The position numbers and the translations under genes are program-made. Below, one piece after another: positions 151 to 49,195 of a DNA stretch of 49,224 nt. This DNA is from Candidatus Thorarchaeota archaeon (GTDB lineage: Archaea > Asgardarchaeota > Thorarchaeia > Thorarchaeales > Thorarchaeaceae): NCBI GenBank assembly GCA_016839605.1, contig JAEOTX010000100.1, positions 1 to 49,224 on the forward strand, written 5' to 3'. The notes beneath the pieces are model-generated. The model saw only the letters and a list, made by a program, of their open reading frames with translations, searched no databases and was not told the DNA's origin. Position 1 is the stretch's first letter. The number at the start of each line of letters is the position of its first letter.

Positions 151-792
151 ATGGTCAAATGCACTAGCTGTGGAAAGTGGAGCTGTAGAACAGGAGACCT
201 GGACAAGCTCCCAACCCAAGGGTTCTGTCCAATGGTAGAGCATGAAGACGCCTTGGTACGTGCGCGGAATCTCTACGATGATCCAACTACAAGAAGAATA
301 TCACAAGAAGCAGCGAGGGTCGAGGCCATTGGTTATTGCGAGTGGTCACGCGTGGAAGAAACAATGGAGTTCGCAAAGCGTATAGGTGCTAAGAAACTCG
401 GGATTGCATACTGCATCGGTTTGAAGCGTGAAGCAGCAATTTTAGCCAGAATCTACGAAAAGAACGGATTTGAGGCGGCATCGGTCTGTTGCAAGACTGG
501 CAGTATTCCTAAGGAGGAGGTTGGTCTTAAGGACGAGGATAAAATCCGGCCCGGCACCTATGAAACGGTCTGTAATCCAATAGGACAAGCAGAGGTGTTG
601 AACGCTGAAGAGACAGACTTGAATGTTATCGTGGGTCTCTGTGTAGGTCATGATTCCCTTTTCATTAAGCACTCCAACGCACTTGTTACATGTCTTGTCA
701 CTAAAGATCGTGTCTTGGCTCACAATCCAGTTGGAGCACTGTATACCTCGGAGTCATATTACAGAAAGAAGGTTTTCGAGAGGGACACGTGA
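151..792 (+). CDS. DUF1847 family Cys-rich putative metal-binding protein
   Basis: N-terminal CxxC..C..CP; SRVEETMEFAK, GIAYCIGL, CCKTG, CNPIGQA, GLCVGHD, KDRVLAHNP motifs typical of DUF1847. Confidence 0.85.
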   Translation: MVKCTSCGKWSCRTGDLDKLPTQGFCPMVEHEDALVRARNLYDDPTTRRISQEAARVEAIGYCEWSRVEETMEFAKRIGAKKLGIAYCIGLKREAAILARIYEKNGFEAASVCCKTGSIPKEEVGLKDEDKIRPGTYETVCNPIGQAEVLNAEETDLNVIVGLCVGHDSLFIKHSNALVTCLVTKDRVLAHNPVGALYTSESYYRKKVFERDT

Positions 793-28866: not shown

Positions 28867-30363
28867 ATGGATGTTCCGAATGTAACACGGAGTGCTCTTG
28901 TAGCAAATCTCAAGAAACATCGCTTGTTCATCATTGTACTTCTATTAGCTGCAATAGTCTGGACATGGGTGTTTATTCAGTCGGCAATAGATTTCGTAAC
29001 TAGCACAAGTTGGCCTAGAGCTGTCTGGAACGGTTATGGGTCCATCAATCTTTTCGGCTTCCCCATTAGATTCGCATACGAGGGCTGGGCTGATCATGAC
29101 TATTTCTATCACAGCTGGGCCAATCAGTTTCTTAGTGGTCTTCTGCCGTATACGCCAGAATTTGACCTCTTATTTCAGAATGAAGCTTACTATAATGTAC
29201 CATACTTCTTCCCGCCTCTCTATCTCTATGCTTGCGTCATTGGCAAGTTGCTTCATTCAGACCTAGGCATAGGTCTAGTTCTCACTGTATTTGGTTTCAT
29301 TACAGCGTTCCCAATCTACGGCATTTCCACCTATCTCTCTGGGAATAGAAATGTGGGAGCCGTTGCAGCTGCAACCTATTTATTCAGCCCCATAATACTC
29401 TATCATACCGTCTTCGAGTGGTTGAACCCTGCTCCGTTTGTCTTTTTCTCAATGCTCTCCTTCTACCTTCTAATGCACAACCGAAGACTCTCCGGAGTTC
29501 TCGCTATGACAACAGCCGCTCTTTTCAAGCAGACCGCCTTCTTCTTTGCTCTACCCCTAATTGCATTCGTATTGAAACGCGCCCCGCAGCCTATTTCCGA
29601 CGAAGAAACACCCCCAGAAGAAGAGGAACAAAATAAGCGGCCGGCGAGTGATGAACTAGATTTGAAAGGATTCGCGAAAATAGCACTTGTTGTATGTGGA
29701 TATGCCGCTGTCCTCTCTTTGCCTTACATTCTGGACCCTTTCAACTATGGAAATGCGATTTTCTCAAGAGCAGGCGGGACCTATCTGACCGATCTGACAT
29801 CGCCGCCACCCATCAGCTTTCCTATAACCCTCGCTGTTCTCTTCATCATGATTGGTGCTCCTGAATGGGTTTCTGAACTTGTCAATCTGACGACTTTTTA
29901 CTCAATAGGAATTATCATTGCTATTGTTCCGCTATTAGCTTTGATGCTGCTGGAGGTGAAGAAAGACCAGGATCTTCAGGCATACTGGCGGAGAATCATT
30001 TTCTTGACTTTGCTCTTGATGCTCTGCGTCCACATATTATCGCCACGTGGAATTTACAAATACTACACTGTTGCACTAGTACCATTCTTCTCAATTCTAT
30101 CAACATCTAGTCTCTGCCAGAGGACCTCTGAAAACGTTCGTGTATCTTTTCCCATGCTACTTGTTCCGATGGTTTGCAGTTTCGCAATAATGATTCCTGC
30201 AAGAACTACCTACCTGCTTTACCTAATCTTGATACTTGCTGGATATATTCTGCATAAAGCATTCTCATATACATATGAATTGGGAGCAGGACCAGCCAGA
30301 AAATTAGGCCAGCGGCTGATGGCCTCGGTACGTGGAGATTCGTCGCTGAAGGTTACTGAATGA
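28867..30363 (+). CDS. GT-C superfamily membrane glycosyltransferase, tandem paralog
   Basis: ADHDYFY..W....G.LPY, YFFPPL, LSGNR.VG, LNPAPF, LFKQTA, PRGIYKYY shared with upstream gene. Confidence 0.72.
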   Translation: MDVPNVTRSALVANLKKHRLFIIVLLLAAIVWTWVFIQSAIDFVTSTSWPRAVWNGYGSINLFGFPIRFAYEGWADHDYFYHSWANQFLSGLLPYTPEFDLLFQNEAYYNVPYFFPPLYLYACVIGKLLHSDLGIGLVLTVFGFITAFPIYGISTYLSGNRNVGAVAAATYLFSPIILYHTVFEWLNPAPFVFFSMLSFYLLMHNRRLSGVLAMTTAALFKQTAFFFALPLIAFVLKRAPQPISDEETPPEEEEQNKRPASDELDLKGFAKIALVVCGYAAVLSLPYILDPFNYGNAIFSRAGGTYLTDLTSPPPISFPITLAVLFIMIGAPEWVSELVNLTTFYSIGIIIAIVPLLALMLLEVKKDQDLQAYWRRIIFLTLLLMLCVHILSPRGIYKYYTVALVPFFSILSTSSLCQRTSENVRVSFPMLLVPMVCSFAIMIPARTTYLLYLILILAGYILHKAFSYTYELGAGPARKLGQRLMASVRGDSSLKVTE

Positions 30364-31525
30364 GCTTCTCCAGCTCTTTCTTCTTCTTCTCCAGATTCTT
30401 ATTCAGCGTCTTCAGACGTGTATCTAGCTTCTCAACTTGCTCAGTGTAGGTGTCTTTAGGCATCGCACCGGACGAGTGTCTTTCTTCAATGTGGTCCCGC
30501 AGCTGTTGGACCGACTTGATCTCTTTCTCCAATGCCTTTGCGTCTGCTTCAATTTCTGCTGCCTGATTTTCTTCATCAGTCTGGAATTGCCTTGATGGAA
30601 TCATGACGCCAAGCTGTGACTGTGTTTTTTCTGCAAAGTCCTGAAATTGATCACGAAGCATCTCAATGTTTTTGTCCACGTTGGCTAACTTCTTGTCCAA
30701 TTTGCCGATGTCTTTCTGTAGGTCGAAAACAGCATTGACTAGTCTACGCATTGTCTTCTCCATCTCGGCGCTAGCTTCTACAGAAGCCTTTAGCTGTTTC
30801 TTTTCTTCCTTCTTCTCTTGGTCCTTTACAACCTCACTTGGCTTAGCAGTCCTTATCTCTCCGCTCAGCCATTTGATGGCATTTACTGCGAACGCTTGGT
30901 TGCCCTTATGCTTCATTCCCCCGCCTTTGCGAAATACCTCGTAGCTACCAACACAGAGTACACGTCCCTTGCCTGCCTCTGCAATCGCAATAACTGGCTT
31001 ATTCGGTGGGTCTGCCGTGTCTGATGTACTCGCTATTGTTGTTGCCTTAGTGGTCACATTGAGAGTACACCCAGAAGGAACAAGTATGTCTTGTACATCC
31101 TCCGTGACGGGATGAACTACCACGTTGGTGATGATAGGCATTGTCGGAAGGCCTGCATTGTTTCTCTCGTCTCGTACAGCTGTGTTCTCGAAGCTAATTC
31201 CAAAACCTTTCGACACTTGGCTCAAGTTATTCATCAGACCACGGTCTCCCCCCGACAGTGAGAGCAGCATCAGACCGCCTCCTTTCTTTACGTATCGCTT
31301 CAGAATATCAATCTCAGCTGGTCGCAGTTTTGAGCTGTTAGGACAACCGAAAACTATGGCATCTGCCCTTTCCAGATTCTTTGCGAGTATCATGTACTCA
31401 GTGTAGGGCTCGACATCGAAGTCATTGTCCTGCAAAATCTTAGCGAGTTGCGAATATGTCGTGTCGAGTCGGCCACGTTCATTTTGGGTCTGGTCAAAGA
31501 GAATGAGCTTCCTTCTTCCGCTCAA
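30353..31525 (-). CDS. GIFT (GldG/IFT52) domain protein with C-terminal coiled coil
   Basis: ILFDQTQNE, IVFGCP...AEIDILKRYV..GG.LMLL..GG, P.GCTL.V, PVIA...GRV...GS..VF, N....N.IKWL; TTG start at 31525 after GGGGGA. Confidence 0.75.
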   Translation of the reverse strand: MSGRRKLILFDQTQNERGRLDTTYSQLAKILQDNDFDVEPYTEYMILAKNLERADAIVFGCPNSSKLRPAEIDILKRYVKKGGGLMLLSLSGGDRGLMNNLSQVSKGFGISFENTAVRDERNNAGLPTMPIITNVVVHPVTEDVQDILVPSGCTLNVTTKATTIASTSDTADPPNKPVIAIAEAGKGRVLCVGSYEVFRKGGGMKHKGNQAFAVNAIKWLSGEIRTAKPSEVVKDQEKKEEKKQLKASVEASAEMEKTMRRLVNAVFDLQKDIGKLDKKLANVDKNIEMLRDQFQDFAEKTQSQLGVMIPSRQFQTDEENQAAEIEADAKALEKEIKSVQQLRDHIEERHSSGAMPKDTYTEQVEKLDTRLKTLNKNLEKKKKELEKLIQ

Positions 31526-31676
31526 TGGTATATCCCCCTGTCTAGAGGTAGTAGGATGAGATGGTGAAAGAGAACTAATGAGAGTTGTGTAGGTGTTATC
31601 CATATGCCTTCTATCTTACGGAAGACTGAAAACTCACTCACGAATACAGCTGGAAAAAAGAGTTGGAGGTTTCAAT

Positions 31677-44114: not shown

Positions 44115-44888
44115 ATGAAGGTCTCTGTGATGCAAGAACGTCTTCAATCTGAACTCTTTGCCTCAATAGCCACACTTGACCAACTGAAGAAGATGTTCGA
44201 TATGGGAATTGTCGACATTGGGTCATATCAGAGGGAGTCTGAAGCATTGGCGAGTGAAGTCAAGGCTAACATCGCGGACTTGAAGCGAATCGGTCTCGAT
44301 TTTGGTACTTTCATTCAGACTGAACGTGTAGCAGAGCGGTTTCCTGATGCTGTTATGCTTCTTGATCTCTCCCGACGTGAAAATCGCTTCCGCGGCGACA
44401 ATATGACTATGGACGAATACTATGACCACATTGGCCTTGCGATTCTTGATGTGGCAACAGCACATGCCTCAAAGGGTCTCATGGGCTTAGCCGAGCTCAT
44501 TGTAGAAGTTGTGAAGCGCATGCCTGAGCTAAAGGCTATCAGTTATAGCGACGTGATTGAGGCGGTCAATCGTGTAGCTGAACATGGGCTTATTCCTGGA
44601 ATTCGAACGCTTCGCGGGGGTGTGAAAGTTGTCGAGCTCCGCCCACTCGAGCTTAGAAGGGACCAAGCGGATGTGGTCAATCTTGCAGCATCAAAGGGAT
44701 ATGTTTCCGTAGAGGAAGTAATGATGCTCATGAAGTGGTCCGAGGATCATGCACGACAAGTGCTCTCTAGTCTAGTAGATGCTGGAATGGCTGTGGCGGA
44801 TATTCGATTCTCCACAGGCGGAAGGTATTACTTCCCAGGTCTACGCGCCAGAGAAAGCAGCGATGGTAGGGCTACGCCCTCTCGTTAG
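44115..44888 (+). CDS. ESCRT Vps28 N-terminal core fused to Vps22/Vps36 (EAP30) tandem winged-helix domain
   Basis: N-term SELFASIATLDQLKKMF..G.V....Y (Vps28 core-like); C-term DEYY..IG..I.DV, GLM.L.EL, D...A, EL..DQ..V...A...GYVS...W....A...L..LV..G....D, YYFP (EAP30). Confidence 0.75.
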   Translation: MKVSVMQERLQSELFASIATLDQLKKMFDMGIVDIGSYQRESEALASEVKANIADLKRIGLDFGTFIQTERVAERFPDAVMLLDLSRRENRFRGDNMTMDEYYDHIGLAILDVATAHASKGLMGLAELIVEVVKRMPELKAISYSDVIEAVNRVAEHGLIPGIRTLRGGVKVVELRPLELRRDQADVVNLAASKGYVSVEEVMMLMKWSEDHARQVLSSLVDAGMAVADIRFSTGGRYYFPGLRARESSDGRATPSR

Positions 44889-45619
44889 ACGATAATCTTA
44901 ATCGCACCTTTCTTCTTATCCACCCAACTAGCAAGACCCTTTTCTACCATGATAAGAAGAACCCGGTGAAGGTCTTTTTCTGGAAGTTTCGCGAAGCTGT
45001 AGTCCTCTTCCTGAATCACGATTGACTTCACGTCTAGTCTCTGCTTTCCTGACTTCAATGCCCAATCATAGATGATGTCGACCCAATCCTCTAGGAATCT
45101 CCAGTAGACTCGTAATTGCCTTCGGTTCCTGTCCAACCACTCTGCAATCTCTTTCTGTACAAGCACCCCACAAATCAACTTGAATGAGTCGACCTTGTTT
45201 GTGATATCATTGAATGGGGGCTCTTTGATGAAGGCGGTTACTGATAAGACGTGAACATCCCGAGCTTCCATCCAACGAAGGACAAAATCTGACCACTCCT
45301 CGGCCCACATATCCCTATCTTCTTCGCGAGGAGGTATGCCGTACATCCACTCTGTCTGTCTGAGGTCTCCCCAAGGGGGCATCAGAATGACTTCTTCTGG
45401 CTCAACTAAAGCTTCCTCAATCTTGACCGCTACATCCTCAGTTTCCTCAACGGTTGTCGTTTCCTTATGCTTTACTACTACCTCTGGCTTATGGGTTGAT
45501 TCAACTTCCGCTTCGTTTTCCTTAACTGGAGTAGGTTCTTCCACCTTGGATTCTGTTTCTGTGGTTTCAGGGGCAGATTTGGTCTTCTCTTTCTCTCTGC
45601 GCCGTTCTCTGACCCCCAC
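44885..45619 (-). CDS. vps25: ESCRT-II subunit Vps25 with acidic N-terminal extension
   Basis: PPW, R..W...W.DFVL.W, PPF, AEW....R...VYW...E.W...IYDW, two WH domains; next to vps4. Confidence 0.82.
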   Translation of the reverse strand: MGVRERRREKEKTKSAPETTETESKVEEPTPVKENEAEVESTHKPEVVVKHKETTTVEETEDVAVKIEEALVEPEEVILMPPWGDLRQTEWMYGIPPREEDRDMWAEEWSDFVLRWMEARDVHVLSVTAFIKEPPFNDITNKVDSFKLICGVLVQKEIAEWLDRNRRQLRVYWRFLEDWVDIIYDWALKSGKQRLDVKSIVIQEEDYSFAKLPEKDLHRVLLIMVEKGLASWVDKKKGAIKIIV

Positions 45620-45622
45620 TCC

Positions 45623-46840
45623 CTAGGACCCCTCCGCCCAATCGATATACCTCTTCACATCCTCTGGAGCTGTTGCAGGCCTGATATTCTCAATGGCTTG
45701 CAGCAAGTCTTCTCTTGATACTGGTCGAACATCTAGAATCTCTTCCTCTTCATCCATTCTTCCAGTCCGTTGTAAGTCCCTGATAGGCTCCATAGCTGCC
45801 TCTCTGCAGACGACACTTATGTCGCGTCCACTGTAGCCCTCACTGAGGTCTGCAAGCTCCTCATAGTCTACATCGGGGGCAACCTCGATGTCTTCCATGT
45901 GTATCTCAAAGATTTTCTTCCTTGCAGGTCTGTCTGGTAGTGGCACGTGGATCTTCTTCTCAAATCTGGACCGAAGTGCAAAGTCCAACTCCCATGGGAG
46001 ATTGGTCGCACCAATCACCGTGACTCTGTCTTCCAAATCACTCGCGAGTCCCTGTAGTTCGGTGAGGAGCTGAGTCTTTAGTCTTCTTTCTCCTCCCACA
46101 TCATCGCCAGACCTAGAAACTCCTACAGAATCAAGTTCATCCATGAAGACTATAGCAGGTTGATTTCGTCTGGCCAAGGTGAAGAGATTCATGACCAGCT
46201 TCTCAGACTCTCCAAGCCACTTGCTTACAATGTTGCCAGCAGACACATTGAAGAACGTGGCATTCACTTCTGCCGCGACTGCCTTTGCAATCAAGGTCTT
46301 TCCGCAGCCTGCAGGTCCGTAGAACAGTATCCCCCTCCAAGGTTGACGGGACTTTCCTTTGAAGAGCTCTGGGTGCTTCATCGGTGCCACAATTGCGTCA
46401 TGAATTGCCTGCTTTGCATCTTCCAAGCCTGCAACATCACTCATCTTGACACTGGGTTTCTCAGTAATGATTGTATCAGCTATCATCTCCTGAAGTCTTC
46501 GTGTGTCTTCATCCACCTCTGCTTCGGCTTCTGCTGTCTTCTCCATTGCGGGTTCTGACTCCGCACTTGGGCTGAAGACAGGTGGTGTTGTCAGTCCCTC
46601 TGGAGGTCCTCTAGCCTTCTTCTTAATTCCAGAGATGTAGCGAACTCTGTCAACGCATTCCTGTGCCCTGTCAAGATAGTGTTTCTGGACTGAGGGCAGA
46701 GATGCGGCATTTGACAGTTTGATCAGAATCTTGCTTGCTTTCAGATAATACTGAGCAGCTTCTTTCTTCATTCCTCTCTGATCCAATTCTATGGCCTTAT
46801 CTAGGAGATTTCTCAGGCCTTGGTCTACTCTATCAGACAT
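45623..46840 (-). CDS. vps4: Vps4 AAA ATPase with N-terminal MIT domain
   Basis: MIT (KAIELD..G..KEA...Y...A..C..R), DVAGLE.AK, PWRGIL.YGP.GCGKT, SKWLGESEK, DELD, RRLKT.LL, ATNLPW.LD. Confidence 0.93.
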   Translation of the reverse strand: MSDRVDQGLRNLLDKAIELDQRGMKKEAAQYYLKASKILIKLSNAASLPSVQKHYLDRAQECVDRVRYISGIKKKARGPPEGLTTPPVFSPSAESEPAMEKTAEAEAEVDEDTRRLQEMIADTIITEKPSVKMSDVAGLEDAKQAIHDAIVAPMKHPELFKGKSRQPWRGILFYGPAGCGKTLIAKAVAAEVNATFFNVSAGNIVSKWLGESEKLVMNLFTLARRNQPAIVFMDELDSVGVSRSGDDVGGERRLKTQLLTELQGLASDLEDRVTVIGATNLPWELDFALRSRFEKKIHVPLPDRPARKKIFEIHMEDIEVAPDVDYEELADLSEGYSGRDISVVCREAAMEPIRDLQRTGRMDEEEEILDVRPVSREDLLQAIENIRPATAPEDVKRYIDWAEGS

Positions 46841-46981: not shown

Positions 46982-47635
46982 ATGCTAGTCTTGCAGGGCG
47001 AAGTCCCTGACGAAGTGGTGAGGCCGTTGGATTCACTTAGAAAGGCATTCAAATGGGGTCGGAAGAAACCCGACATTGGAGAGGTTTCCAGCCAACTCAG
47101 AATTCTAACCAAACAGCTTGCTCGTGAGAGAAACAAGCTAGAGAAGGAAGAGCGGGACACAAGAGCTCGCGCCATAAAGGCTCGCAAGGCTGGACAGACG
47201 GATGCCTTCAAGACTTACGCCACTGAAATGGTGCGCTTCCGAAGATACGCTCTTTCAACAGACAAAGCACGTCTTCAAATCCTCAAGATATTGGCTCATC
47301 TCAATCGCGCGCAGACTTCGGCAAGAACCGGCCGCGCACTTGAGCAAGTTGCAAAGATACTAGGAATGCTGGGTGACACAAGCGATACCCGGAAACTGGT
47401 GGAAAATGTTGATGAAATCACTCGCCGCCTAGATGAGTTTGAGATTGAAAGTGAAATATCTGCAGATGCACTTGATGCAAGTATGGAAGTAAGCTCAGAT
47501 GACCTGACCGCTGCTATGCAGGAAATTGACGTGGAGGTCGGACTGGCTGATGCAACTGTGGCTGCTAAGCCTGCTTCTGAATCAGACACCCTTGAGAAAG
47601 ACATCAAGGATCTGGAGCGCGAACTGGGTATCTAG
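46982..47635 (+). CDS. ESCRT-III protein, Vps2/24/46 (CHMP1-3) class
   Basis: Basic N-half (L.....KQL.RE..KL.KEE......AIKA.K.G......YA.E.VR.R), acidic C-half, C-terminal MIM1-like LEKDIKDL; start may be TTG near 47027. Confidence 0.85.
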   Translation: MLVLQGEVPDEVVRPLDSLRKAFKWGRKKPDIGEVSSQLRILTKQLARERNKLEKEERDTRARAIKARKAGQTDAFKTYATEMVRFRRYALSTDKARLQILKILAHLNRAQTSARTGRALEQVAKILGMLGDTSDTRKLVENVDEITRRLDEFEIESEISADALDASMEVSSDDLTAAMQEIDVEVGLADATVAAKPASESDTLEKDIKDLERELGI

Positions 47636-49195
47636 CTACCATCTATATCCTTGACCGTAACGAGATGAACGTTCGATTTCGCGTTTAGTGTGATACGAAT
47701 CACGCATCAGACCTCTATATCTTCTGATGAAGTCTTCGGGGACCAGATGGCCATTTCTCATCAGATGGACTGTTTCATTGATTGCATTCTGAATCTCCAT
47801 AGCGTTTCTTCTGAGATACTCCATATCAAATCCAGTGCCTCCATATGGCACCCCCTGCCTGTAGTCCACTCGTCCAATAGTGTTCTCAAGATGCTCTTTG
47901 AAAGCCCTTGGATGGTCATATGGGTTCTCATTTCTGCCATATCCTGATGGCATCGTTCTTGAATGGAAAAATTCTGATCTCCCTGGGTAACGCTGCGGTG
48001 CTTCTACGGCTGTGTTGCTTGTTGAAAGGAGTGAATACACTAAACCCTCTATCTTCAATCTGACGTCGCTAATGTTGAGGTTCTTCTGTTCGATTTTCCT
48101 AACCCTTTGTAAGTCGCTCTGCATATACTTCTCAAACTTTCTCGCAATCTCAAAATAATCTGGCATGACCTTCTTTGTATCCTCACTGCAGGAGATTTTA
48201 AGGTCGCCCTGTTTGAGTCGCAATACAAGCTTCTTTCGAAGCCGACCATATTCCTCAATCCCTTTCAAATACATTAATGGGAATTGGAATACAATCTCTG
48301 TCTTCTTGCGTAATCTTCCTGTTTCAGCTACTAGGAATAACCTCTTGTTTGTGATGAAGAGAGTGCCATAGGCCTTGTCATTCTTCAAGAAGTTACTACC
48401 TACCACCCTAATGTCTGGCAATGCAGCCACGGGCAATTCATTGACAGAGAGTTCGCCATGTTCATAGAAGTCAGCGAATTCTTTCCTGTGATAGCTCAAG
48501 CCGTCAAGTTGTGCCATCACCTCTTTGAGCCTCGGTCTAACCTCATTTAGGCTGTCATCCACATGCTGCTTGTAGTAGTTGCCTAGCTCCATCACCCTAT
48601 TCCTGACACCTTCGATGAACGGGAACTGAGCCGGAGTCCATTTGCTATAGTCGAGTAATCCCTTTGTTTCAGCGGCAATCTGCTTCGCAACTATTTCTGC
48701 TTGATTTCCTATTCGACTCTTAATTGCAGGCATCTCATCCTGTACGGACTCCACTTTCTCCTCAATCCAATGATAATGCAGGAAGTTTGCCATTCTGAGA
48801 GATACAAGCGTCCTCTTGGCATTGTCAAGTTTGGTCGTGAATTCTCTCAGTTTGGTATGGCCATATTGGATACTCATGATGGAATGTCTAAGCTCTTGAG
48901 CCAGAGTTCGCCTTCTCTCTTCCAGCAGGACAATCCGACTAGAGTGACACCGAGGGCATATGTCTGCCGTTCGTTTACCAGCATCAATATTCTCAGATTC
49001 ACACTCAGGACATGTGTCCAACGCCTCGTCCTGTGACAGAGTCAATGTTGCATGACAGTCGCGGCACATATGATACTCTTTGGTCCGAGAATCGAGGCAA
49101 TCGGAACACAGCACTGTACCACAATCTTCACACATGTGACTAGCTCTGTTTCTTTGACAGACAGGGCACCGATGAGATGAGGAATCTAGAGTCAA
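47636..49195 (-). CDS. Multidomain protein: B-box/zinc fingers, coiled coil, PH/GRAM-like domain, Tyr/Pro/Gly linker, Vps23-like steadiness box
   Basis: CxxC..CxxC...C..C plus further CxxC pairs; heptad region; GTLFITNKRLFL; C-term EIQNAINETVHLMRNGHLVPEDFIRRYRGL; GGAGGT upstream of TTG. Confidence 0.7.
   Translation of the reverse strand: MTLDSSSHRCPVCQRNRASHMCEDCGTVLCSDCLDSRTKEYHMCRDCHATLTLSQDEALDTCPECESENIDAGKRTADICPRCHSSRIVLLEERRRTLAQELRHSIMSIQYGHTKLREFTTKLDNAKRTLVSLRMANFLHYHWIEEKVESVQDEMPAIKSRIGNQAEIVAKQIAAETKGLLDYSKWTPAQFPFIEGVRNRVMELGNYYKQHVDDSLNEVRPRLKEVMAQLDGLSYHRKEFADFYEHGELSVNELPVAALPDIRVVGSNFLKNDKAYGTLFITNKRLFLVAETGRLRKKTEIVFQFPLMYLKGIEEYGRLRKKLVLRLKQGDLKISCSEDTKKVMPDYFEIARKFEKYMQSDLQRVRKIEQKNLNISDVRLKIEGLVYSLLSTSNTAVEAPQRYPGRSEFFHSRTMPSGYGRNENPYDHPRAFKEHLENTIGRVDYRQGVPYGGTGFDMEYLRRNAMEIQNAINETVHLMRNGHLVPEDFIRRYRGLMRDSYHTKREIERSSRYGQGYRW

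Follow-up and report, generated by a model that had tools for sequence, protein, structure and literature searches.

How ESCRT proteins are targeted to membranes in the Thorarchaeota, which are reported to lack both ubiquitin and UEV-Vps23 (PMC9192718; preprint 10.1101/2023.07.25.550441), and how Asgard precursors gave rise to the eukaryotic ESCRT-I and ESCRT-II complexes, an active question at present, are problems raised by a gene that lies among ESCRT genes in the window examined here (the whole stretch of 49,224 nucleotides from a Thorarchaeota contig). A first-pass annotation of this DNA described the gene product as a TSG101/Vps23-like steadiness box on a TRIM-like scaffold of zinc fingers, coiled coil and PH domain, placed it as an ESCRT-I-like subunit, and knew of no described ESCRT-I subunit with this architecture. 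This interpretation is partly supported: the structural claims are borne out by our analyses, and the claim of novelty is wrong. The Asgard family Znr_CC_PH_SB (asCOG cog.011556; also written Znr_PH_CC_SB) was described by Makarova et al. (2024, mBio; PMC10936438), who considered it likely to form part of ESCRT-I and to bind membranes through its PH domain, and in a preprint (10.1101/2023.07.25.550441) cog.011556 is already entered among the asCOGs as 'Steadiness/Vps23 box'. On sequence grounds, the gene studied here is most likely the Thorarchaeota orthologue of this family. The architecture and the functional reading were hence already published in 2024, from sequence analysis; it is the only paper that we found to contain the terms searched, and we found no experimental work on the family. 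The family, which is reported to be widespread among Asgard archaea and probably to date back to their ancestor, may explain how ESCRT reaches membranes in the Thorarchaeota. What is added here is quantitative support for each domain, viz. a Vps23-type steadiness box and a GLUE/GRAM-like PH domain, together with a Vps28-type hairpin on the neighbouring Vps22, which provides a concrete candidate partner.

The gene and its family

The gene annotated at 47636-49195 is a genuine ORF of 519 aa, not a chance one, and it belongs to a strongly conserved family. Its TTG start is supported because homologues start at the identical position (MTxD...) and because a protein started at the later ATG would lack C10/C13, a pair that is invariant in the family. 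Searches with the protein retrieved 167 homologues at E<=1e-3, of which those with names are nearly all from Thorarchaeota, and a profile search recovered 120 clusters (50% identity) with an identical domain order; the named matches of the family searches are nearly all Asgard archaea. A contig scan found the family in 75 species genomes of the Thorarchaeota lineage, its lineage-specific search patterns detecting loci of that lineage only. Proteins of the family range from ~460 to >900 aa, the domain order being constant and the length of the linker varying widely among lineages. With the 519-aa protein alone, no Pfam family scored above threshold, and since single-sequence searches (Pfam, NCBIfam, PDB) yielded just sub-threshold zinc-finger and bPH_3 matches, family profiles were required. 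An Atlas search returned the family's own unnamed clusters and a lead, with a score of 0.85, to a Chloroflexota GRAM/Vps36-like cluster.

Like the published Znr_CC_PH_SB proteins, the product has three zinc modules, a coiled-coil/helical region, a PH domain and a C-terminal steadiness box, and it shares with them a restriction to Asgard archaea and an association with ESCRT genes. A 649-aa Lokiarchaeial member retrieved by the profile (E 4.8e-33) has L35Ae upstream and ESCRT-III downstream, a context which corresponds to the Table S2 locus of GC14_75 (PMC10936438). The Lokiarchaeum GC14_75 member (As_004-p_01543) has 650 aa, compared with 519 aa for the Thorarchaeota protein, the difference being due to a shorter linker in the latter. 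The three zinc modules are given as ribbons in PMC10936438, whereas the first two sites are RING/B-box-like in our analyses; similarity statistics for the family, of which Table S3 of that paper holds none, are provided here.

Table 1. Features of the gene, of its product and of the adjoining ESCRT genes (positions in the window)
Feature	Residues	Positions	Strand	Basis or remarks
Whole Znr_CC_PH_SB gene	1-519	47636..49195	-	519 aa, TTG start; ORF list and translation
First two Cys4 sites (predicted)	10-47	49055..49168	-	Invariant CxxC C10/13, C22/25, C30/33, C44/47
Third zinc site (predicted)	62-83	48947..49012	-	Invariant CxxC knuckles C62/65, C80/83; zinc-ribbon-like
Helical ('coiled-coil') domain, family-specific	91-246	48458..48925	-	AF2 model, pLDDT mostly 83-95
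PH-fold domain	255-353	48137..48433	-	Model, Foldseek, VIA, Pfam
Two conserved helices C-terminal of PH	362-390	48026..48112	-	Models; block QxDxQRVRKxEQ...DVRLKIE
Tyr/Pro/Gly/Arg-rich disordered variable linker	394-453	47837..48016	-	AF2 model, length variation
C-terminal helical hairpin, putative Vps23-type steadiness box	454-514	47654..47836	-	AF2 model, family profile
ESCRT-III (Snf7-family)		46982..47635	+	217 aa; Pfam Snf7 E 6.6e-12; convergent with and abutting the Znr_CC_PH_SB gene
Vps4 (MIT, AAA, Vps4_C)		45623..46840	-	405 aa; Pfam, NCBIfam
Vps25-like ESCRT-II subunit		44885..45619	-	Pfam ESCRT-II E 7.2e-14
Vps22-like EAP30 protein		44115..44888	+	Pfam EAP30 E 1.2e-14
Vps28-N-type hairpin of the Vps22-like protein	6-82	44130-44360	+	N-terminal profile, Pfam, hhalign

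Domains of the 519-aa protein

The N-terminal region contains six CxxC pairs, the 12 Cys of which show no variation in an alignment of 35 diverse members and would suffice for three predicted zinc sites if each site takes four Cys; the B-box-like and CxxC zinc modules previously assigned to 48940-49170 (residues 9-86) agree with this Cys-rich module. The knuckles of the third site are separated by 14 residues, the AF2 model has beta strands at 70-79 and 88-90, and Pfam DZR matches residues 30-83 of the protein (E 3.8e-4). The first two sites resemble RING/B-box fingers in their spacing and in their profile matches, DZR fitting about equally well: an N-terminal profile matched the RING of RNF4 (4.3e-7), TRIM2 (2e-5), TRIM21 (3.7e-4) and also the B-box1 of MID1 in the PDB, and Pfam zf-B_box and DZR were matched, mostly below threshold, in 14/23 (best 7.9e-6) and 17/23 members, respectively, the RING/B-box scores being subject to inflation by Cys-rich profiles. 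These matches, and the helical region that follows the finger as it does in TRIM proteins, could be taken to indicate a cross-brace RING/B-box joined to a helical domain, the two acting together as a regulator of ESCRT components, either an E3-type ligase or a scaffold for higher-order assembly. This explanation appears extremely improbable, however, in view of the equal fit of DZR, the score inflation, and the results for this genome (80% complete), in which no ubiquitin was matched and no UEV exceeded the Pfam cut-off (best E 0.21), in agreement with the absences reported for the Thorarchaeota. The TRIM-like label of the first-pass annotation stands for the likeness of an N-terminal Cys-rich finger followed by long helices and does not extend beyond analogy; the C-terminal modules of TRIM proteins are different.

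The long helical region that had been noted after the fingers consists in the AF2 model of four long helices (91-135, 142-176, 188-217 and 220-246). Searches with residues 88-250 against the PDB and Pfam returned generic coiled coils alone (adhesins, haemagglutinin HA2, designed bundles) and no recurrent Pfam family. No kinship with DH domains is proposed, the DH-PH matches that Foldseek gave for the full-length model having an rmsd of ~19-28 A and being driven by the PH part. The Tyr/Pro/Gly-rich linker, also noted earlier, is likewise present in the AF2 model, with pLDDT <50 over residues 394-425 and 442-453; it contains a short helix (429-442) that is conserved in the Thorarchaeota-lineage alignment with the motif [FY][RK]xxL[ED][RG]T[ILV]xR. 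The spacing of this motif, compared by eye, misfits the MIM1 and MIM2 consensus, and the helix is not proposed to bind MIT domains.

The middle domain, earlier described as PH/GRAM-like at 48130-48455 (residues 248-356, in agreement with the fold delimited here), is predicted by the structural model (pLDDT 85, pTM 0.70) to have seven strands and a C-terminal helix. Foldseek searches with this model placed the GLUE domain of EAP45 first (2hth_B, E 7.6e-5, and 2dx5_A), followed by MTMR2, with yeast Vps36 (2cay_A) at rank 15. In VIA, PH-like folds occupied all 50 of the matches listed, including the PH-GRAM domain of MTMR2 (Z 12.4, rmsd 3.0, 106 aligned) and GLUE 2dx5_A (Z 10.6, 23% identity). 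Among family members, this region matched the Pfam families bPH_3 (27/42), GRAM (16/42) and Vps36_ESCRT-II (13/42). By these models and matches, the middle domain is a PH fold of the GLUE/PH-GRAM/bacterial-PH kind. Three basic residues within it, K274, R285 and R296, are invariant in an alignment of 23 Thorarchaeota-lineage homologues.

The C-terminal segment earlier identified as a steadiness box (47672-47824, residues 458-508) lies within a predicted hairpin, the two helices of which (454-480 and 486-514) have a pLDDT of 88-95 in the AF2 model. A family profile of the hairpin searched against the PDB was led by yeast Vps23/Stp22 (2p22_A 2.8e-7, 2f66_A 1.1e-6, 2caz_A 4.6e-6), with TSG101 (0.037) and VPS37B (0.28) also matched, and the Vps23 core matches cover the full 57-residue hairpin. 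Neither Vps23_core nor Mod_r of Pfam was matched by the 519-aa protein alone, so that the assignment rests on family profiles. Among 23 full-length Thorarchaeota-lineage homologues, Vps23_core was matched in 3 (best 0.0019), and a profile restricted to Thorarchaeota found Stp22 at E 0.024-0.11 (ranks 2-4), below a phycobilisome-linker repeat; the Thorarchaeota hairpins align with those of other lineages in hhalign at 96.5% (E 9e-10). Across 35 diverse members, Pfam Vps23_core was matched in 27 (best 3.2e-7), compared with 2 each for SHOCT (best 0.0084) and CdvA (best E 2.5e-4).

A generic SHOCT hairpin, the alternative named in the first-pass annotation, did not hold against these counts. If the hairpin were nonetheless of this kind, it would serve self-association without an ESCRT-specific partner in a zinc-finger/PH membrane scaffold, and the proximity of ESCRT genes would be functionally meaningless. 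In favor of this reading are the G-x-[IV]-[ST]-xx-[DE]-[FY] turn, which is common in short helical hairpins, SHOCT-like ones included, the missing single-sequence match to Vps23_core, and a six-frame genome scan in which the PH, helical-domain and Vps22-hairpin profiles matched one ORF each and the steadiness-box profile also matched other, unrelated ORFs weakly. Two of these (C179:38993-39604, E 1.5e-5; C255:43948-44259, E 5e-3) lie in non-ESCRT contexts and match only generic coiled-coil Pfam families, and both were rejected, as was a Vps23_core match on contig C106, which falls inside an SMC-like coiled-coil protein. We regard the SHOCT-like explanation as very improbable, given that Vps23 cores match best in the PDB, along the whole hairpin, and that the linkage with ESCRT genes is kept in two lineages (see below). 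The profile evidence supports the identification of the C-terminal hairpin as a Vps23-type steadiness box rather than SHOCT.

The ESCRT neighbourhood and a candidate partner

The locus order is Vps22-like, Vps25, Vps4, ESCRT-III and the Znr_CC_PH_SB gene, a neighbourhood which fits the earlier placement of the protein as an ESCRT-I-like subunit. The same order, including the abutting ESCRT-III gene, is found in other Thorarchaeota genomes, and a gene for the Vps28N-Vps22 fusion lies ~2.7 kb downstream of the Znr_CC_PH_SB gene in 56/57 species loci with enough DNA, these gene-order counts being drawn from close kin and hence not representing independent events. The 649-aa Lokiarchaeial members adjoin L35Ae, and a Snf7 gene is located within 1.5-4.3 kb in Lokiarchaeial relatives. 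ESCRT linkage thus occurs in both the Thorarchaeota and the Lokiarchaeial lineages. The translated Vps25-like protein has a low-complexity acidic/basic N-terminal extension of ~80 aa, and this genome encodes two Snf7-family proteins. Four 151-nt contigs of metatranscriptome run X20 (~95-97% identity, depth 2-4) map here, with two falling on each of the Znr_CC_PH_SB and Snf7 genes; they were rejected as a sign of expression, the coverage being too thin and DNA carry-over possible.

The abutting ESCRT-III gene in Thorarchaeota and its nearness in Lokiarchaeial relatives are also what would be expected of a CdvA-like protein, i.e., a membrane-bound recruiter that contacts the Snf7 product directly, for cell division, without an ESCRT-I/II-type hairpin assembly. 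Crenarchaeal CdvA is similarly a proposed membrane binder encoded beside ESCRT-III and Vps4, a relationship between its hairpin and the steadiness box has been reported (PMC10936438; preprint 10.1101/2023.07.25.550441), and the two CdvA matches given above point the same way. We consider this explanation unlikely. The Vps23_core matches far outnumber those to CdvA (27 vs 2); CdvA has a PRC barrel instead of zinc fingers and a PH domain and recruits CdvB via a C-terminal peptide, and the 519-aa protein has neither a PRC barrel nor a recognisable C-terminal ESCRT-III-binding peptide; and a full ESCRT-II pair is present at the locus, the Vps28-type hairpin of its Vps22 being an obvious docking site.

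This hairpin is located at the N-terminus of the Vps22-like protein, the gene for which probably starts at M6. The three best PDB matches of the N-terminal profile are to yeast Vps28 (E ~0.2), Pfam VPS28 was matched in 16/20 members, and Thorarchaeota Vps22 is listed with a 99% HHpred match to PF03997 in Table S3 of Makarova et al. 2024 (PMC10936438). It is the sole Vps28-type hairpin found in the 80%-complete genome, and its comparison with the steadiness-box profile in hhalign gave 78%. Complex prediction for the steadiness-box and Vps22 hairpins gave a score of 0.48 (best of 3 controls, 0.01), a value attained by 58/80 solved complexes and 2/110 mismatched pairs, with 7/80 solved complexes and both mismatches falling between 0.48 and 0.60, and the score may echo likeness to known structures instead of true binding because Vps23-Vps28 cores have been solved (2f66, 2p22, 2caz). 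The runs agree in >=97% of contacts, with a partner pLDDT of >=73. These predictions lend weak support to a pairing of the two hairpins.

Proposed role and relation to Vps23 and Vps36

We consider it likely that this Znr_CC_PH_SB orthologue acts as an ESCRT-I-like upstream adaptor. The PH domain would bind an anionic membrane surface via its conserved basic loops, and the C-terminal hairpin would pack on the Vps28-type hairpin fused N-terminally to the neighbouring Vps22, in the way that Vps23 and Vps28 associate in the headpiece of eukaryotic ESCRT-I. Through such packing, ESCRT-II (Vps22/Vps25) would be brought to the membrane, followed by ESCRT-III and Vps4, with the zinc module left for cargo, partner or self-association. 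With an assembly hairpin of the Vps23 type and a membrane module like that of Vps36 in one chain, Znr_CC_PH_SB may supply both the Vps23-type and the Vps36-GLUE-like functions in the Thorarchaeota. A more far-reaching proposal, which we advance tentatively and hold to be rather doubtful, is that the protein and the Vps28N-Vps22 fusion form a minimal, ubiquitin-independent ESCRT-I/II supercomplex with a two-hairpin headpiece, and that the archaeal equivalent of the GLUE domain in eukaryotic Vps36, and perhaps its origin, lies in the GLUE-like PH domain of Znr_CC_PH_SB and not in any Vps22 relative.

The 519-aa protein shares with Vps23/TSG101 a C-terminal helical hairpin, which is a steadiness box by the family profile, and a disordered Pro/Tyr-rich linker before the assembly region. 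It differs from Vps23/TSG101 in having zinc fingers and a PH domain, in the lack of a UEV (no Pfam match in the protein), and in the lack of a long stalk helix leading straight into the hairpin. With the GLUE domain of Vps36/EAP45 and the PH-GRAM proteins (MTMR2, Lam6), it has the PH fold in common, GLUE and PH-GRAM domains being the nearest solved structures. Unlike Vps36, it contains no EAP30 winged helices, and its PH domain has no NZF inserted into it (a feature of the yeast protein), the zinc modules being located at the N-terminus instead.

Very probable membership in a published Asgard family

The gene marked in the first-pass annotation has been confirmed, and our analyses support its structural and functional reading. 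Its TTG start is accepted because homologues begin at the same position and because a later ATG would remove the invariant first CxxC pair. In four deposited Thorarchaeota orthologues (P0004, P0005, P0008, and P0009), annotated at 470-478 aa, the first CxxC pairs are missing; overlooked non-ATG starts are the probable cause. Nearly all named homologues are Thorarchaeota "hypothetical proteins". A family profile compared with 1.84 billion representative proteins matched 120 clusters, many of 600-900 aa with an unchanged zinc/helical/PH/steadiness box order and a longer linker.

This architecture corresponds to that of Znr_CC_PH_SB (alternative name Znr_PH_CC_SB; asCOG cog.011556), a family specific to Asgard archaea whose members combine three Zn ribbons with a coiled coil, a PH domain, and a steadiness box. 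The family is described as absent in eukaryotes and likely ancestral in Asgard archaea, and has been rated a likely ESCRT-I component whose PH domain is expected to be membrane-associated by analogy with Vps36 (Makarova et al., 2024, mBio, PMC10936438). The initial claim that no described ESCRT-I subunit is known to have such an architecture is therefore incorrect and, since both the architecture and the ESCRT-I reading were already published, the finding is not novel. Similarity statistics for the family are absent from Table S3 of that paper, and our full-text literature search returned Makarova et al. (2024) alone; no experimental work on the family was found. The gene for a Lokiarchaeial member of 649 aa (profile E 4.8e-33) closely follows L35Ae and precedes a Snf7 gene, mirroring the Lokiarchaeum GC14_75 locus, where a 650-aa protein is flanked by L35AE and MetE and Vps20 lies farther along (PMC10936438, Table S2). 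The identical domain order and this matching locus indicate that the target protein is very probably a member of cog.011556.

Other Thorarchaeota genomes keep the order PmbA/TldD (two genes), target gene, Snf7, Vps4, Vps25, EAP30, and AspRS, and hence the ESCRT module ends at the target gene. Some Asgard Vps25 proteins have been described with a steadiness box; the Vps25-like protein of the window differs in that no hairpin-like signal was seen in its N-terminal extension.

Coordinates of the target gene, its modelled segments, and other features (window positions unless a contig is named)
Feature	Position	Strand	Remarks
Target ORF	47636-49195	-	519 aa, TTG start (ORF list, translation)
Cys-rich beta module	residues 1-90		AF2 model
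Four long helices	residues 91-246		AF2 model
Beta sandwich, then helix	residues 255-335, 338-353		AF2 model
Two helices	residues 362-390		AF2 model
Linker	residues 394-453		AF2 model, low confidence
Short helix in linker	residues 429-442; 47870-47911	-	AF2 model
Hairpin	residues 454-480, 486-514		AF2 model, confident, pLDDT 88-95
Snf7-family ESCRT-III gene	46982-47635	+	convergent with and abutting target gene
Vps4 gene	45623-46840	-	MIT, AAA, Vps4_C domains
Vps25-like ESCRT-II gene	44885-45619	-
Vps25-like N-terminal extension	residues 1-80; 45380-45619	-	low-complexity, Glu/Lys/Thr/Val-rich, ahead of ESCRT-II domain
EAP30/Vps22-like gene	44115-44888	+
Vps22-like N-terminal hairpin	residues 6-82; 44130-44360	+	conserved
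420-aa ORF	30356-31615	-
200-aa helical protein	C179:38993-39604 (L006:7006-7608 +)
Second Snf7 gene of genome	C179:55421-55903
411-aa all-helical protein	C117:21698-22933 (L002:835-2070 -)	-

Domains of the target protein

The whole-protein AF2 model, for which 23 homologues of the Thorarchaeota lineage were used, has a mean pLDDT of 74. The long helical region recognized earlier is modelled as four helices, for which searches matched nothing specific. The linker is otherwise variable, and its short helix carries a motif conserved in Thorarchaeota members ([FY][RK]xxL[ED][RG]T[ILV]xR); by eye, the spacing does not fit MIM1 or MIM2.

The steadiness box proposal is borne out at the family level. 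When all PDB sequences were compared with a profile made from 35 diverse C-termini, the yeast Vps23/Stp22 core ranked first (2p22_A 2.8e-7, 2f66_A 1.1e-6, 2caz_A 4.6e-6; 57 residues aligned in each), with TSG101 at 0.037 and VPS37B at 0.28. In Pfam scans of the 35 single members, Vps23_core was matched by 27 (best 3.2e-7), Mod_r by 4, and CdvA and SHOCT by 2 each. The target's own hairpin, scanned alone, gave no Vps23_core match, and a Thorarchaeota-only profile placed Stp22 at ranks 2-4 (E 0.024-0.11). Because the family profile matches the Vps23 core and the Thorarchaeota hairpins align to those of other lineages (hhalign probability 96.5%, E 9e-10), a generic SHOCT or unrelated helix is disfavored for the family. 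Elsewhere in the window, the C-terminus of a 420-aa ORF weakly matches the non-Thorarchaeota steadiness box profile (E 0.16), which is insufficient evidence for an ESCRT-I-like hairpin there. On contig C179 of the same genome, a 200-aa helical protein with two hairpin repeats and a G-x-I-[ST]-xx-[ED]-[YH] turn matches the steadiness box profile at E 1.5e-5; it lies ~16 kb from the second Snf7 gene, among immediately neighbouring metabolic genes.

The PH/GRAM-like assignment also holds. Residues 247-392, folded with 42 sequences, gave seven strands and a C-terminal helix (pLDDT 85, pTM 0.70). In a Foldseek search of the PDB, the two leading hits were the EAP45 GLUE domains of human (2hth_B, E 7.6e-5) and mouse (2dx5_A; 20% identity, target-normalized TM-score 0.63), followed by MTMR2 PH-GRAM and BBS5, with yeast Vps36 GLUE at rank 15. 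An independent VIA search listed PH-like folds in 50 of 50 matches, including MTMR2 (Z 12.4; 106 residues aligned at rmsd 3.0) and 2dx5_A (23% identity, Z 10.6). Member-wise Pfam matches recurred for bPH_3 (27/42, best 4.3e-8), GRAM (16/42), and Vps36_ESCRT-II (13/42). K274, R285, and R296, in loops around strands 1-4, are invariant in all 23 Thorarchaeota-lineage homologues, a sequence pattern that fits putative anionic-lipid binding. A Chloroflexota cluster of ~572 aa (Pfam GRAM in 68% of members, Vps36_ESCRT-II in 51%; language-model feature score 0.85, Atlas) is a lead to a possible bacterial GLUE/GRAM-like PH family.

The zinc module contains six CxxC pairs, whose 12 Cys are invariant in 35/35 diverse members; the first four pairs are separated in a pattern (x8, x4, x10) that resembles B-box1 or RING fingers. 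Its profile matched RNF4 RING (4.3e-7), TRIM2 (2e-5), TRIM21, and MID1 B-box1, with scores inflated by Cys-rich bias, and Pfam zf-B_box and DZR recurred in 14/23 and 17/23 members. The invariant Cys support the zinc modules proposed earlier as predicted sites. Given the Cys-rich bias, and a liganding topology that may be cross-brace or sequential, "TRIM-like" is an analogy.

A candidate partner in the Vps22-like neighbour

Homologues of the Vps22-like protein begin at M6, which places the true start probably five codons downstream of the annotated one. Against the PDB, the top three matches of its N-terminal hairpin profile were yeast Vps28 N-terminal domains (E about 0.2), and Pfam VPS28 was matched in 16/20 members. 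This Vps28N-Vps22 fusion is already published as Vps22# (cog.002769), and a 99% HHpred probability to PF03997 is reported for one Thorarchaeota Vps22 (PMC10936438). The fusion gene lies ~2.7 kb downstream of the target gene in 56 of the 57 species loci of the Thorarchaeota lineage whose flanking DNA was long enough; these counts come from related genomes and are not independent events.

The source genome (3.08 Mb, 80% complete), of which the window is the entire contig C22, was scanned in six frames, its completeness being a caveat. The PH and helical-domain profiles each matched the target gene only, the Vps22 hairpin profile matched the Vps22-like gene only, and the steadiness box profile gave a strong match to the target gene and weak matches to a few other ORFs. 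Neither a UEV above Pfam's cut-off nor ubiquitin was found in this 80%-complete genome; Thorarchaeota seemingly lack ubiquitin (Hatano et al., 2022, PMC9192718).

Complex prediction for the steadiness box and Vps22 hairpins scored 0.48 (best of 3 controls, 0.01), with contact agreement of at least 97% between runs and a partner pLDDT of at least 73. The mark it passed was reached by 58/80 solved complexes and 2/110 mismatched pairs; scores of 0.60 or below at the mark came from 7 of the 80 solved complexes and both of those mismatches. The model weakly suggests that the steadiness box hairpin pairs with the Vps28-type hairpin of Vps22; as Vps23-Vps28 cores have already been solved, the pass may reflect likeness and not real binding.

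The 411-aa protein on contig C117 has a weak, near-full-length match to Pfam VPS28 (E 0.0034, covering positions 11-184 of the 188-position profile) and may be the Thorarchaeota Vps28-like "BAR-SB" protein listed by Makarova et al. (2024, PMC10936438).
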